64,000 nt of DNA, from the IMG/VR virus record IMGVR_UViG_3300028797_000006, positions 54,403 to 118,402 of that record; one strand, 5' to 3'. A program made the translations under genes and the position numbers. Position 1 is the stretch's first letter. Each line of letters starts with the position of its first letter. The stretch is from a virus (lineage: Duplodnaviria; Caudoviricetes). This document shows positions 5,845-60,526 of this stretch, in pieces. The notes beneath the pieces are model-generated. The model made no database searches and was not told where the DNA came from. It was given only the letters and a program-made list of their open reading frames with translations.

Positions 5845-5941
5845 TGGCACGGGTTGTAGGACTCGAACCCACACCTACCGCTTTGGACACGGAATCTTTA
5901 CGGTTTTGAAGACCGCTGTGCTGCCATTACACTAAACCCGC
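5845..5941 (-). tRNA. tRNA-Trp(UCA) opal decoder with ~23-nt expanded variable region
   Basis: GCGGGTT/AACCCGT acceptor, G73, CCA; anticodon arm GCGGT-CT TCA AA-ACCGT; T-arm GTGGG TTCGAGT CCTAC; acceptor resembles the phage's tRNA-Trp(CCA). Confidence 0.9.
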
Positions 5942-38995: not shown

Positions 38996-39598
38996 ACTGC
39001 CCTTTGATAATTATCTAATGCTGACCTTCGTCATACACGGCTTATTAACTGACATTATTCACACACGTTCACTAGAGTCTGAGGCAAAGGGAGCGACCCA
39101 ATGACTTCTCTAATGGCATAAAGCGATCAACGGGAACAGTTTACTTTGTTCCAACTTTCACCGAGCTTCAGAGCATATTGTATATTGATCGTAACTTTCA
39201 ACGTCGCGGTCAGATTTAACCTTATGTTAAAGCTTCTTCATTTGTCTTTCAGCTACTCGTACAGCCATATTCAGTTATAGGTTATTTCTAACCATCAAGA
39301 CACCGGTTTCCTTTGAGTGCCGGGATATTAAGTTTCTCAGGCTTAATTCCTTAGGCGAGATGCATTACTGCAGTTGCTACTTGTCACCGCTGAATTTAGG
39401 CTTTGCTTATGCGTAGTTAACACGATGCACAACCAACTACATCCTTCACTGCTTTCCCATAGTAGGTTTACCTATAAGTTTCCCGATAGGTTTCTTACTC
39501 ACAATACAGTATCCCATATTGCTTTCATTCTGTAGCTGGCTCCAGGCGGTCCGCAAGACCATCTTCACCTGGTTGCAAAGATAATTATCAAAGAACAA
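38996..39598 (-). ncRNA. large structured ncRNA, ROOL-like (~600 nt)
   Basis: Ends pair (CTTTGATAATTATCT/AGATAATTATCAAAG); own TTGACA-N17-TATAAT promoter; ORF-free and tRNA-adjacent; GGGTCGCTCCC..TCAGACT segment recalled from ROOL RNAs but not verified. Confidence 0.6.
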
Positions 39599-46962: not shown

Positions 46963-47043
46963 CTAATTAACAAGGTTGCTTAAAGGTTCGACATCTAAGC
47001 CGTGAATGGTATTATATGCTACTGTCCACAATACTTTTGCCAT
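46963..47043 (-). CDS. leader peptide 2, MAKVLWTVAYNTIHGLDVEPLSNLVN
   Basis: AAAGGAGA RBS; codons match operon-2 anticodons; last codons and stop form the antiterminator. Confidence 0.8.
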   Translation of the reverse strand: MAKVLWTVAYNTIHGLDVEPLSNLVN

Positions 47044-47059
47044 AACCTTTTCTCCTTTG

Positions 47060-47430
47060 CGTAACGGTAGTAATCGCTTCACTACCAAGCTACCACATCC
47101 TTGCGTGGTTCCAATGACCTGCCGTTTTATAGTCCCCTCGGGTCAATCGAGATAGGGTAATTTTGCTGTGTCGTGCGTCAGGATTACTACAACCATAATC
47201 ACGGTGGCGTTCATTCATAGGGGAATGCATATAGCCACAACCATCACCCGGAAGTTTTCTATGCCTGTCTAGATTAAGAAGGTTACGCCGTCAAAACGGT
47301 TAGTGGAGCCTTCATACTTCCAACTACATTGGTATCTCGCCGCAGCATCGCGCTACTTTATCTCTGCCGATAATTTGTTAGTCGCATCAGTTTAAGCATA
47401 AGTGGTAAATCGTGGCTTGCGACCAATAAG
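47060..47430 (-). ncRNA. ~370-nt structured 5' leader upstream of leader peptide 2
   Basis: ORF-free, hairpin-rich, downstream of TTGACA-N17-TATAAT at ~47455-47483. Confidence 0.5.
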
Positions 47431-47491
47431 ATATATTATATCTTATCTATAATTATTATAGAACTTTCTTGTCCCGTTGTCAAGAGATTTT

Positions 47492-48475
47492 CTACTTTTG
47501 GTGTTTCTTTTCCCAAGCCTCTCTATATTCAGCAGGGATATGTACTTCAAGAGTCTCTCTACTGCGTTCACTTTCGTCTATATTATAAATAACTTCATCA
47601 ATAGTATAGGCAAGGAATTTCCACTCTTCAGGAGCTTCTTTGATTACATCTTGGACATCTTCATAAGTTTTGAAATAGGACATACTGCCGCAATCAAACT
47701 TTGTGCCCATCCAATCTGGTGCTTGTCTTACATATTTAATTTCATAGCGTGTATAGGAATCGTCACCATTTTCATCGTGTAAAAACCTATTTTCATATTC
47801 TTCAAGCATATGCTCTTCTTTATCGAGCAAATCAAACAAGCCTTGAATATAAAGGTTACGGTCATCCTTATCATAAACACTATCACTAATATCACTTACT
47901 TGTTCACCTGTGTGGCGGTTAGTAGTATAACCATAGTCATAGGCAACATAATTACCATATCTATTGATGCCGATCTGTCCATTATCTCCAGTAAAACCGA
48001 AGTGGTCATTTAAAGCCTCCATAGCTTCGACTGCCTTGGTAGCACTTTCATAAGTTCTATCATAGCGTTCAGAGAACTCTTCTTCTGTTTCATTCTCTCT
48101 GCGGTTGACATAATCCATATAGTCATCAACATCACTATAATCGTCGTAAAAGTCTCTCCAGTCTTCAACTTCTACTCTTTCCATAATCTCGACAAAACGC
48201 CCATATGCGGCGATTTCCGCGAGTGGTAAAAAGTCACAGCATTCTAAATATGTTTTAATTTCAAGTTGATTTTGTCTGTATCCACCAATTCCCATTGCGA
48301 CTTTAACAATACAAGGGAAAGGAATACGCAAACCAAGTTTATATTCTAATTCAGTAGAAAATGGAAAGACCATGCGGGCGCAACCTGCATCCTCAGTATT
48401 TAATCCCATAACATAATCTAAGATTATTTTCTCTTGTTCGTGTGTTAGAACTATAATGTTTTCAGTTAATACCAT
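47492..48475 (-). CDS. acidic protein, possibly protein-kinase-like fold
   Basis: GCARMVF..VKVA..NQLE..IMERV..DNGQIG..VAYDYG resemble kinase subdomains. Confidence 0.5.
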   Translation of the reverse strand: MVLTENIIVLTHEQEKIILDYVMGLNTEDAGCARMVFPFSTELEYKLGLRIPFPCIVKVAMGIGGYRQNQLEIKTYLECCDFLPLAEIAAYGRFVEIMERVEVEDWRDFYDDYSDVDDYMDYVNRRENETEEEFSERYDRTYESATKAVEAMEALNDHFGFTGDNGQIGINRYGNYVAYDYGYTTNRHTGEQVSDISDSVYDKDDRNLYIQGLFDLLDKEEHMLEEYENRFLHDENGDDSYTRYEIKYVRQAPDWMGTKFDCGSMSYFKTYEDVQDVIKEAPEEWKFLAYTIDEVIYNIDESERSRETLEVHIPAEYREAWEKKHQK

Positions 48476-48589
48476 AGCCTTTCTACCTTCTTTCTTATAT
48501 AATTATTATACTATATAAAAAAGGCTTGTTCAAGATATTTTCCGCTCAAGCCCAAATATTTTCGCAATTCCGTCTGCCTTCCAAAATAA

Positions 48590-49925
48590 AAGGACTAGTA
48601 AGTAATTACTAGTCCAAAAGAAGGAGGAAAATGAAGAGTAAGAATTACCCTTCAAGCAGGACATTAGGTTAGGAAGGAGGTGATAAATGAAACACCTAAT
48701 GTACTGCTTGAAGGGTAGTAGGACACTTTACGACTCGAATAAGTGAGCCCACCTACTACTCTATTGTACCCATAGTCGCGCAACTATGGTCATTACTTTT
48801 TATGGAAGTGAATTATAAACTTCCATGTATTGTAATCGGGTGGCCGTTGAAGTAATGAGAACCCGCATTAGTCTATTATCCGTTTTTCGAGTGTCGTCCG
48901 TTCCTAATGAAAACCTGTCTCTGTTAGCAGTCCCTGTGCTAACACATGGTCAATAGAACTTACTCAGTCGCCACTGACTTCGACTGGGTGTACCCTGCTA
49001 GACACCATAGCTGTCGTGCTGTTCTTCCCGACATGTCAAGTAGATCGGTTCGGCTACTGCGACTTCTCTTACGGTGGAGAGTACCGGTCAATTGCGTCCC
49101 AACTAACAAGAACGATTAGGTCGTAAACCCAGTATATAAGGCCCTGCGGCTTCATACATTTACGCTACCAGCATGGTTACGAGTGAATAACGGCTCCACT
49201 AGGCGGTCGGGGTTTAATTCATAGCAGGAAGCATCCGACTTGGCTCCTGTCCTACCATCGCAAGCACGATAGGCGGTGTCTCTTTTGAACTTGCGAAGAG
49301 ATTAAGCAGGAGAGTTTTATACAGATACATACCTCTCTAACTTCTGCCTTTTACGATTAGCATCTCACGCCGTTTACGCAGTAAACGGAAACTGGATAAG
49401 ACATCATTTCTTTGGAGCTTGTCTTTTCATTTCACACCAGTAGGGGCCGGTTATTAAGTTCATTTTCTACCCTACATCTTCGCTACACCTTATCTAAATG
49501 GAGGTGCCAACCGTACTGAACATTTTACTTCGCCAGTCAGAAGGTTCGTTCTACTTACGAAGAGAGACTGTGGTCTGCTACTTCGTCATACTCCGGAAAG
49601 ACACATCGGTCGGAATGGACTTACGGGCTGTAAGGTCGCCGTGCCCTGTTCATTCAGTGGGCTCACCGAGCTCATTGTCACCAGATTGCTCACTAGGCTG
49701 GTCTAGTTAGCCATTTAGTCTATTGCTAACTTGTGTACCCATACGTTGAGGTTTCCATGGTCTACGGGTTTAACGCCGTGCCGCCGAACGTCTTACACAG
49801 GCACAACTGTGCTGCGCGGACAACAAGTTGTCCTGATGCTTTACGGACTTACTGCACATCCCAGCGGGGAGTTTGAGTTTAACGACTTCGGGGTCCAACC
49901 GTTCTGGTCAAGAGAAGACAAGAAT
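48590..49925 (-). ncRNA. giant (~1.3 kb) noncoding transcript candidate
   Basis: TTGCTA-N17-TATAAT promoter upstream; no credible ORF; 3' hairpin displaying ATCACCTCCTT; terminator GGACTAGTAA/TTACTAGTCC-TTTT. Confidence 0.6.
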
Positions 49926-50041
49926 TATCTTTCTTCTCTATATATAATTATACGATATATTGTTAAACTTAGCAAGAAATTTTTACAATATAAAGGGGAG
50001 TTTTTAGGAACTCCCCAACCTGATTTATTACTGTCTAATGA

Positions 50042-50527
50042 CTATTCAATGTCACGGACAAATCCGTAGACACCGACTTCTGACTTAGAAACAGATGGGA
50101 CTTCAACCATATCTCCTTTTGAGAGATTGCCTTTCTTAACAAGACCATTGATTGAACCTGAACTCATTTTGTCTCTGCCCATAGCTTTTGCTAAATCAGC
50201 AAGAGTGAATGGTGATTCGATTGAGCTGACTACTTCAAGGATAGCCTTTTCGCCATCAGTGTAGTTGAATGGTTTTCCTTCTGCATTTGAGAGGGCTTCT
50301 GCTGTAACGAAGTTATAGCTGGAAACTTCTCTTGTTGATGGTCTTTCGATTTCTCTTGTACCAATCTTTGCGATTAAACCTTTCTTGATAGCGGAAGTAA
50401 GGTGACCTGGTTTGAATTCTCCGCCGTTAGCGTTTAATTCAGCAAGAGTTAAACCTTCTGTTCCTTTGAGTGCTGCTACGAGAGCACGGTCGTTGTCTGT
50501 ATAGACGATTTCTTTTGCTTTAGACAT
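50042..50527 (-). CDS. tandem winged-HTH protein (phage paralogue family)
   Basis: Two repeats YTD..AL..TLAEL..G..T.LxKKG. Confidence 0.7.
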   Translation of the reverse strand: MSKAKEIVYTDNDRALVAALKGTEGLTLAELNANGGEFKPGHLTSAIKKGLIAKIGTREIERPSTREVSSYNFVTAEALSNAEGKPFNYTDGEKAILEVVSSIESPFTLADLAKAMGRDKMSSGSINGLVKKGNLSKGDMVEVPSVSKSEVGVYGFVRDIE

Positions 50528-60262: not shown

Positions 60263-60526
60263 TTAGTCATTGCTGACTAATTCATAGACCTTGGCGGATT
60301 TCTTGACGGAGCCGACTTTAACGCCGTTGTAGATTACATCACAAGCGTATTCGACTTCCTCATCAGCCTTGACGATACCTTTCTTGATTAAGGTATTGAC
60401 TGAACCAGACTTGAAGTTAAAACCTTTGAAGTAGTTTAATTCAAATAAGGTTGCCTTTCCACCGTTGTCCTTTAATGCCTTACAGAAGGCAGTTTGGGTT
60501 TCATTCATTGACCATTGTTTTTCCAT
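60263..60526 (-). CDS. small wHTH-family paralogue
   Basis: W..NETQ..LK..ATL.EL..FKSGSVNTLIKKG. Confidence 0.7.
   Translation of the reverse strand: MEKQWSMNETQTAFCKALKDNGGKATLFELNYFKGFNFKSGSVNTLIKKGIVKADEEVEYACDVIYNGVKVGSVKKSAKVYELVSND

Follow-up and report, generated by a model that had tools for sequence, protein, structure and literature searches.

Very large structured non-coding RNAs (ncRNAs) of bacteria and phages are few; to our knowledge, they comprise OLE, GOLLD, ROOL, HEARO and raiA. Each of them opened a line of research, the latest being the RNA-only cages of ROOL and GOLLD. ROOL and GOLLD are self-assembling, abundant phage RNAs encoded near tRNA islands, and in GOLLD the 3' region is universally conserved whereas the 5' region varies (PMC12286853). 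The OLE RNA contains an anti-Shine-Dalgarno mimic that is bound by the ribosomal protein bS21 (PMC12054373), and the small RNAs of the cuckoo/CcsR group consist of adjacent hairpins with variable stems and constant CCUCCUCCC loops (PMC4615179). Here, we analyzed the right-hand 64 kb of the complete 118,402-bp phage record IMGVR_UViG_3300028797_000006, which ends in direct terminal repeats; this stretch of 64,000 nt is called the window, and all coordinates refer to it. The subject is a unit of ~1,355 nt on the minus strand (~49940-48585), bounded by a promoter and a terminator and referred to as the giant RNA. The explanation that accounts best for the unit as a whole, and which we consider probable, is an independently transcribed, abundant and highly structured ncRNA of ~1.35 kb. 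Taken separately, it is very probable that the RNA is structured and functional and represents a new family, and the mechanism through translation initiation, drawn by analogy, is a tentative proposal.

A preliminary description of the window had placed a non-coding unit with its own promoter and terminator at 48590-49925. The unit is real, and its true 5' end lies ~15 nt further out. The sigma-70-type promoter (Table 1) is found at the equivalent position in the homologues of the window's lineage (L005, L006, L009, L008 and L014), and distant family members carry TAGACA or TTGACT followed by TATAAT; the intrinsic terminator is kept in close homologues. The genes around the unit are also on the minus strand. 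Since the upstream gene, coding for a 161-aa protein, has its own terminator (50016-49995) and the downstream gene, coding for a 327-aa protein, its own promoter (48533-48505), the giant RNA unit stands alone. As had been described, the unit is GC-richer than its surroundings (GC content 0.44-0.53 versus 0.36 window-wide), and no shift in base-composition skew occurs at this position.

The absence of a credible open reading frame (ORF), also part of the preliminary description, was borne out. All six frames contain stop codons (19-35 per frame), and all three stop kinds are frequent in each of them. The longest open stretch comprises 82 codons, with the standard code and with TGA read as tryptophan alike, and when any single stop is ignored the longest frame reaches at most 167 codons and lies on the plus strand. 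In comparison with three homologues (~80% identity), substitutions were distributed over the three codon phases as 203/230/219 (p=0.43), i.e. without 3-periodicity, and 42 of 49 indels were not a multiple of three. The three flanking genes, used as a control, exhibited a third-position excess (p<1e-10) and exclusively in-frame indels.

Parts of the unit were found in 23 metatranscriptomic runs from bovine gut (24 listed runs, 12 studies). Contigs of four runs from four studies were evaluated over 8 kb; stretches that no contig covered were given no weight as evidence. In these, the giant RNA was covered 36-1425x, the 327-aa gene 0-3x, the 161-aa gene 3-90x and the region further upstream mostly 0-6x. 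In one run, near-identical pieces of the giant RNA reached 548x and 378x whereas further genes of that phage stood at 4-24x, which argues against a carry-over of DNA. The large ncRNA that the preliminary description had proposed thus has a transcript in four independent bovine-gut studies, at 10-100x the depth of neighbouring phage genes, and the case for the giant RNA as an abundant transcript is good but not final.

Homologues of the giant RNA were identified at another 18 distinct loci in metagenomes. On ENA and Logan contigs reached through homologues of the 327-aa neighbour, the same ~1.6-kb gap separates the 161-aa and 327-aa genes, and the syntenic homologues in this gap align with the giant RNA over its full length (82-84% local and 79-82% global nucleotide identity), with invariant blocks alternating with variable stretches. 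The global identity exceeds that of the 327-aa and phosphoesterase genes (74-77%). Collinear patches at 70-75% identity to the giant RNA were found on a 123-kb bovine contig. A scan of JGI metagenomes with a 20-mer from the longest invariant block retrieved ten family loci and one chance match (L020), which shows no homology and was discarded. A further nine loci, of which five are distinct, were reached in more distant phages via homologues of the 161-aa protein, and in each of them the gene-free gap of 1.4-2.6 kb that follows this gene holds the same 5' domain. A second motif search, in which the conserved block at 49485-49520 served as the pattern, retrieved one member (L034), whose gene order is the same; it lies on a metagenome-assembled-genome contig that looks like a binned phage fragment. 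Predicted lengths in the family are ~1.0-1.5 kb. The giant RNA unit and its neighbours had no BLAST match in GenBank phages; in IMG/VR, no relatives came up when loci were searched by the 327-aa and sigma proteins, and three conserved motifs matched the window's own record only; and none of 185,579 species genomes of bacteria and archaea contains the core 20-mer. Many metatranscriptome contigs match only the invariant 33-nt core (Table 1) and diverge on both sides, which suggests that the rumen holds many diverse relatives. We regard the family as undescribed giant phage RNAs of uncultured, TGA-recoded rumen and gut phages.

The pair of winged-helix gene (see below) and RNA follows a sigma-factor gene in most phages and lies ~6 kb away from it in the window's lineage; three more distant relatives of the 327-aa protein (L010, L011 and L012) do not have the module at this site. 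At one locus (L032:3990-5350), a short copy of the 5' core (~170 nt) stands directly after the winged-helix gene; after it come another TATAAT promoter and a structured RNA of ~1 kb of a different type, which again ends in a hairpin with a CCUCCUU loop. This arrangement suggests a modular rearrangement of giant RNAs.

The giant RNA consists of a 5' domain conserved family-wide, a lineage-specific 3' domain and a tail. The more complete of the distant loci match the nhmmer profile at positions ~16-610, the others over shorter blocks. Across 11 diverse sequences, the 5' domain showed 14 compensatory pairs compared with 3.1 +/- 2.5 in column-shuffled alignments. The unit had been described as hairpin-rich, and in thermodynamic terms this holds for its 3' 785 nt, where the minimum free energy (MFE) of the single sequence is well below that of shuffled sequences (z = -3.8); the 5' 570 nt reach only z = -1.0. 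As the folding energy of the single sequence is not significant there, the 5' structure rests on covariation.

The best-defined part of the 5' domain is the subdomain R1, which measures 153-160 nt in 14 sequences and has divergent stems. Its structure was written from the window sequence and then counted on a plain MAFFT alignment of 14 sequences that had not been fitted to the structure. On this alignment, 81.7% of the cells pair, compared with 23-41% when the partners are slid; both sides change in 19 of the 41 pairs, and none of 500 shuffles reached the observed values. A covariance model of R1 was found in 18 sequences and has a single occurrence in the phage genome. On the resulting alignment of 18 sequences, 85.4% of the cells pair (17-40% slid), with a covariation score of 0.232 compared with at most 0.085 in the controls. 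The 33-nt core is identical in a five-sequence alignment and nearly so in all 18 sequences. Its hairpin contains an invariant G-U pair (G13-U37), and many other G-U pairs are found elsewhere; invariant G-U pairs identify the minus strand as the RNA. A pseudoknot between the loop of the third R1 hairpin and the segment before CCCACU was considered and is kept only as tentative: positions and double changes fit. In the conserved block at 49485-49520, the pair 649-665 is either AU or CG.

The 3' domain is kept and structured in the window's lineage (L005, L006, L009, L008 and L014) and is replaced by other sequence in distant members. This region of 600-700 nt differs by lineage and is swapped as modules, with one type common to L018 and L027 and another to L013 and L015. 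RNAalifold applied to six sequences predicted 149 pairs in the 3' half, 51 of which show compensatory changes (19 +/- 4 in column shuffles), and a consensus energy of -121.9 kcal/mol as opposed to -51.7 +/- 5.8 kcal/mol in 40 column shuffles (z = -12). Covariation among homologues had been proposed as a check on the unit; compensatory changes do keep a common fold across them.

The tail module comprises about the last 150 nt and merges with the terminator. All 16 members for which the 3' end is available have a long hairpin whose stem sequences are unrelated and whose loop is of the CCUCCUU type, with UCCUUCC/CUCCUUCC in place of CCUCCUU in three members. In the window, the loop contains AUCACCUCCUUCC, of which 11 consecutive bases match the 3' end of bacterial 16S rRNA; the CCUCCUU(CC) loops in general resemble the same 3' end. 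A second CCUCCUU (Table 1) is kept in the window's lineage, and several distant lineages carry it in the terminator loop. Lineages other than that of the window have a preceding hairpin with the loop UCAGGAGGAUAA, i.e. a Shine-Dalgarno sequence without a start codon. In L015, L017, L018, L019, L024, L027, L029 and L030, the loop of this extra hairpin reads UCAGGAG(G)AUAA, and the hairpin stands just upstream of the one with the anti-Shine-Dalgarno-like loop. The Shine-Dalgarno-like and anti-Shine-Dalgarno-like loops of the distant members are complementary over 6 nt. Intramolecular kissing of these two loops was considered and rejected, as the window's lineage has no conserved GGAGG. An antisense to a full initiation region, formed by CAU and a CCUCC loop, was likewise set aside: in 11 of 16 members, CAU precedes CCUCC by 0-6 nt, a spacing that is too short and too variable to be more than a hint.

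A gene for a tandem winged-helix protein, the 161-aa protein mentioned above, is directly upstream of the RNA in every locus for which the upstream flank is present. The protein family has 175 members. The AlphaFold2 model (predicted local distance difference test score, pLDDT, 91.6) consists of two winged-helix domains in a tandem repeat. Its structural matches (VIA-align) are generic, cover one domain and comprise MarR, PadR, ArsR, ScpB and Z-alpha types (Z 7-8.7); Foldseek gave no match at E <= 0.001, and none was found in Pfam or PHROGs. Between phages whose other genes are ~75% identical, the nucleotide identity of this gene is 95-97%, an unusually high degree of conservation. From gene order, the winged-helix protein is a candidate partner of the giant RNA. 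Directly after the giant-RNA terminator stands the 10-mer GCAGACGGAA, which was found after the terminator as such, as its complement or in a shorter form, in either orientation, in 14 listed loci and is absent from L006/L007 and L032. Sites of this type follow the RNA terminators in L005, L008, L009, L014, L015, L018, L019, L027, L029, L030 and L034. The motif is probably a protein-binding site at the DNA level and not part of the RNA.

The window contains a further unit of this kind, which measures 1.6 kb (Table 1). It carries AACCUCCUU near its 3' end and TTCCGTCTG after its terminator, and as it has homologues of its own (L015, L019, L021, L029, L030 and L032) it represents a second conserved giant RNA family. 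The preliminary description had seen no similarity between the two units, and BLAST agrees: a search with the giant RNA against the whole phage found only a 34-nt match in the promoter region, and the reciprocal search from the 1.6-kb unit found nothing. A 58-nt module (84% identity) is common to the 1.6-kb unit and the L024 member of the 1.3-kb family. A single-domain paralogue of the winged-helix protein (87 aa; BLASTP E=1e-5 to the 161-aa protein) is encoded directly upstream of the promoter of the 1.6-kb unit, so that both giant RNAs are paired with winged-helix paralogues. The paralogues may bind the giant RNAs or, alternatively, the GCAGACGGAA motif after both terminators.

The phage further encodes 31 tRNAs and a ROOL RNA, which was identified by the ROOL model (RF03087) at 39002-39596 with 222 bits, 9 kb from the giant RNA; the model does not match the giant RNA unit itself. 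One protein gene separates the giant RNA from the tRNA blocks. The large ncRNA counted in the window amounts to ~3.6 kb (ROOL 0.6 kb, giant RNA 1.36 kb and the 1.6-kb unit), compared with roughly 5-6 kb in the preliminary description. Upstream of the tRNA block, a leader and attenuator region (46967-47500) is covered 10-40x by metatranscriptome contigs in four of four runs; these contigs show several length variants with joints at 47115-47161.

Table 1. Coordinates of the giant RNA unit, its parts and related features in the window.
Feature	Coordinates	Strand	Details and basis
Sigma-70-type promoter	49947..49975	-	TTGCTA-17-TATAAT; 10/12 matches; predicted start near 49940
Intrinsic terminator	48584..48615	-	10-bp hairpin 48615-48592, then U-run UUUUAUUUU
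Predicted giant ncRNA transcript	48585..49940	-	Promoter and terminator bounds, no ORF, non-coding evolution, metatranscriptome contigs over exactly these bins, strand from G-U pairs
Conserved 5' domain (~570 nt), family-wide	49371..49940	-	nhmmer and alignment
Subdomain R1	49611..49777	-	Invariant hairpin; covarying hairpin (loop AGACUNAA); hairpin with tentative pseudoknot; nested covarying helix pair
Invariant 33-nt core CCCGUAGACCAUGGAAACCUCAACGUAUGGGUA	49736..49768	-	Hairpin ACCCGUA/UAUGGGU, conserved loop
Conserved block CAGURCGGUUGGCACCUCCAYUUAGAUAAGGUG	49485..49520	-	Hairpin CACC/GGUG covarying to CAAC/GUUG
Lineage-specific 3' domain	48730..49370	-	RNAalifold, six sequences
Long hairpin of the tail	48647..48717	-	Folding; ~23 bp, nearly perfect; 24-nt loop with AUCACCUCCUUCC (48684-48672)
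Second CCUCCUU	48621..48627	-	In single-stranded tract UUCAUUUUCCUCCUUCUUUUGG just before the terminator
GCAGACGGAA motif	48568..48577	-	Directly after the giant-RNA terminator
161-aa tandem winged-helix protein gene	50042..50527	-	Directly upstream of the RNA; synteny
Tiny plus-strand ORFs	48631-48672 (13 codons), 48687-48746 (19 codons)	+	Behind perfect ribosome-binding sites mirroring CCUCCUU
1.6-kb unit	~60221-58590	-	Promoter TTGACT-17-TATAAT 60256-60228; terminator 58608-58589; GC 0.48
Single-domain winged-helix paralogue (87 aa)	60263-60526	-	Directly upstream of the promoter of the 1.6-kb unit

A tentative mechanism for the giant RNA can be outlined as follows. The RNA would be made early from its host-type promoter and accumulate; early synthesis is suggested by the type of promoter together with the position among early-class genes. 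The large 5' core would form a folded scaffold that is bound by the winged-helix protein or assembles by itself in the manner of ROOL and GOLLD. The exposed anti-Shine-Dalgarno-like loops would then engage the translation-initiation machinery, either by pairing with the Shine-Dalgarno regions of mRNAs, as thought for cuckoo/CcsR, or, as shown for the OLE RNA, by presenting a ribosomal factor (bS21, for example) with a mimic of the 16S tail. Shine-Dalgarno sites precede 21 of 26 of the phage's own genes, indicating that the host ribosome relies on this pairing.

Several points weigh against the explanation of the giant RNA as a structured RNA acting on translation initiation. Its function rests on inference from sequence and analogy. 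The winged-helix fold is generic, and the modelled protein may as likely bind DNA. The contigs give no strand, ends or true abundance of the transcript, and the runs were chosen because they hold the unit. Most homologues come from one habitat and few phage lineages, and the covariation counts are consequently not counts of independent events; the 5' 570 nt are no more stable than shuffled sequences, and the R1 pseudoknot is not significant in per-sequence shuffles. As to the tail, the window's lineage has neither the Shine-Dalgarno-like loop UCAGGAGGAUAA nor a conserved GGAGG, and because this loop is missing there, a single loop-loop or Shine-Dalgarno/anti-Shine-Dalgarno duplex model does not fit every member. 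In addition, the opposite strand of the loops reads in most members as a perfect ribosome-binding site with an AUG behind it.

Among the alternatives, an RNA-only homo-oligomeric cage or scaffold of the ROOL/GOLLD type has to be taken most seriously, even though we consider it unlikely. The 5' core would multimerise via loop-loop and A-minor contacts, and the pyrimidine loops would serve assembly or cargo capture instead of translation control; in part, this coincides with the explanation preferred here. It is attractive in view of the ROOL RNA that the same phage carries beside a second giant RNA, and of the self-assembly of ROOL and GOLLD near tRNA islands (PMC12286853). The conserved AGACUNAA loops and the loop of the invariant core are candidate tertiary or quaternary contacts, and distant members carry complementary AGGAGG and CCUCCU loops. 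However, the giant RNA has no homology to ROOL or GOLLD, its fold is a prediction from sequence, and the window's lineage lacks a conserved GGAGG loop that could pair with CCUCCU. The conserved adjoining protein gene points to a ribonucleoprotein and away from an RNA-only particle.

The ribosome-binding sites on the opposite strand lead to a second alternative, in which tiny plus-strand genes are functional and the long antisense transcript regulates them, similar to a type I toxin-antitoxin system, or merely overlaps them. Indeed, GGAAGGAGG is followed by AUG within 0-8 nt on the plus strand of 11 of 16 members. The ORFs concerned measure only 3-19 codons, and neither their length nor their sequence is conserved among homologues; no plus-strand promoter lies upstream, and the site coincides with a hairpin loop on covarying stems. 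As the G-U pairs favour the minus strand and such genes account for no more than 100 nt whereas conservation of the unit extends over 1,350 nt, we consider this alternative very unlikely.

It is even harder to reconcile the data with an element that acts at the DNA level and is transcribed only incidentally, be it an origin of replication, a site for packaging or a regulatory region rich in inverted repeats. A large gene-free region with hairpins, the recurrent DNA motif GCAGACGGAA at its flank and an adjoining gene with a winged-helix, i.e. DNA-binding, fold could be expected of such an element. Helices are kept via G-U pairs, however, which are A-C on the other strand, and a conserved promoter and terminator bracket exactly the conserved block. 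The RNA depth of 10-100x that of neighbouring genes and the lack of a shift in composition skew render a DNA element highly improbable.

Descent from a known large RNA (rRNA, group I or II intron, GOLLD, ROOL, OLE or HEARO), as a divergent member or a remnant, is hardly conceivable. None of the 4,227 Rfam models matched 48300-50200 at E up to 10, and ten homologous loci had no Rfam match at the gathering threshold; the Rfam scan that had been suggested for the unit thus assigned it to no family. Specifically, GOLLD and OLE gave no covariance-model match in the unit (E up to 10) or in the ten homologous loci. The size is near that of 16S rRNA, and some short motifs are 16S-like (AUCACCUCCUU; GCGGUUGG-CACCUCC; UAAACUCAAA; GUUGGG...CGCAAC). 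A divergent 16S rRNA was nonetheless rejected: the small-subunit rRNA model (RF00177) had no match in the whole 118-kb phage whereas 14 of 14 control genomes matched, and the motifs lack collinearity with 16S, each being near chance length except for the 3' tail, which leaves AUCACCUCCUU as the only shared sequence. Finally, a protein-coding gene masked by an unusual code, frameshifts or introns, or a decayed pseudogene, for which the recoding of TGA as tryptophan in this phage's late genes and a suppressor tRNA at 5845-5941 might speak, can be dismissed given the stops, flat codon phase and frame-breaking indels reported above, a conservation pattern of blocks and compensatory stems, and 80% identity with an invariant core across phages with 50-70% identical proteins, which is unexpected for a pseudogene.

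In a more far-reaching form, the giant RNA could be a giant decoy of the mRNA-binding end of the 30S subunit that, with the winged-helix protein or self-assembled, captures initiation regions, 30S or bS21 and reprograms host translation early, as one of at least three giant RNAs forming a takeover toolkit. We regard this as a speculative and rather doubtful extension. If true, copies of the 3' tail of 16S would be on display in the decoy, in most lineages together with a Shine-Dalgarno sequence that lacks a start codon, and ROOL, the giant RNA and the 1.6-kb unit would together represent an RNA-based takeover toolkit of TGA-recoded rumen phages. Irrespective of its mechanism, a family of 1.0-1.5 kb would be the largest structured ncRNA class of bacteria and phages outside ribosomal RNA. 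The giant RNA is also tractable: its habitat is well sampled and the RNA abundant there, its conserved core lends itself to structure determination, a candidate protein partner is at hand and the tail offers a functional handle. The same phage has a recoded genetic code and encodes 31 tRNAs, ROOL and a second giant RNA, which makes its group a natural system to study giant phage RNAs in relation to host translation.

None of the papers searched contained the core motifs, and the topical results concerned only the known ROOL, GOLLD and OLE work. A catalogue of viral structured RNAs from 2023 cannot contain the giant RNA because its motifs average 67 nt and three IMG/VR matches were required. 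In comparison with the small RNAs of the cuckoo/CcsR group, the giant RNA shares freely varying stems combined with a constant C/U-rich, anti-Shine-Dalgarno-like loop motif in its 3' tail. The former are small stand-alone RNAs of Alphaproteobacteria with 2-4 hairpins, whereas here the motif belongs to the tail of a 1.35-kb phage RNA that has no Rfam match. This tail has one long hairpin plus a terminator hairpin or single-stranded tract with CCUCCUU(CC), the stems are fully variable, and the last bases of the motif differ from CCUCCUCCC. The likeness is thus a resemblance in design and not membership.

The OLE RNA is likewise a large structured RNA with a copy of the 16S 3'-tail CCUCCU, and the AGGAGG loop of distant giant-RNA members, which is able to pair with CCUCCU, resembles OLE P6. 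OLE, at ~600 nt, belongs to the cellular RNAs of Bacillota and works with dedicated partner proteins, among them membrane proteins; the giant RNA is encoded by a phage and has a candidate partner that is suggested by gene adjacency. Its neighbours are the tandem winged-helix gene and the 327-aa protein without a Pfam match in place of oapA, oapB and oapC. The mimic is located in a stem inside OLE and in exposed loops at the 3' end of the giant RNA, and the two RNAs have no homology.

The closest parallels are ROOL and GOLLD, which like the giant RNA are very large, intricately folded phage ncRNAs (PMC12286853, PMC5737381). All three are stand-alone units of phages with tRNA islands and are highly abundant, and similar to GOLLD the giant RNA has one well-conserved and one less conserved region. 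Sequence and covariance-model similarity to ROOL and GOLLD is absent. The giant RNA family is larger (1.0-1.5 kb compared with ~580 nt for ROOL and ~800 nt for GOLLD), its conserved part is at the 5' end as opposed to the 3' end in GOLLD, and a protein gene sets the tRNA blocks apart from it. It is always accompanied by the tandem winged-helix gene, whereas ROOL is without a known partner protein, and it carries anti-Shine-Dalgarno-like loops at its 3' end that ROOL and GOLLD do not have. With more than 500 nt, non-coding character, covariation, a phage origin and high metatranscriptome depth, the giant RNA is of the kind of the large ornate phage RNAs, but belongs to no described family; what sets it apart from these is its size, the conserved 5' region, the obligatory winged-helix neighbour and the anti-Shine-Dalgarno-like loops.

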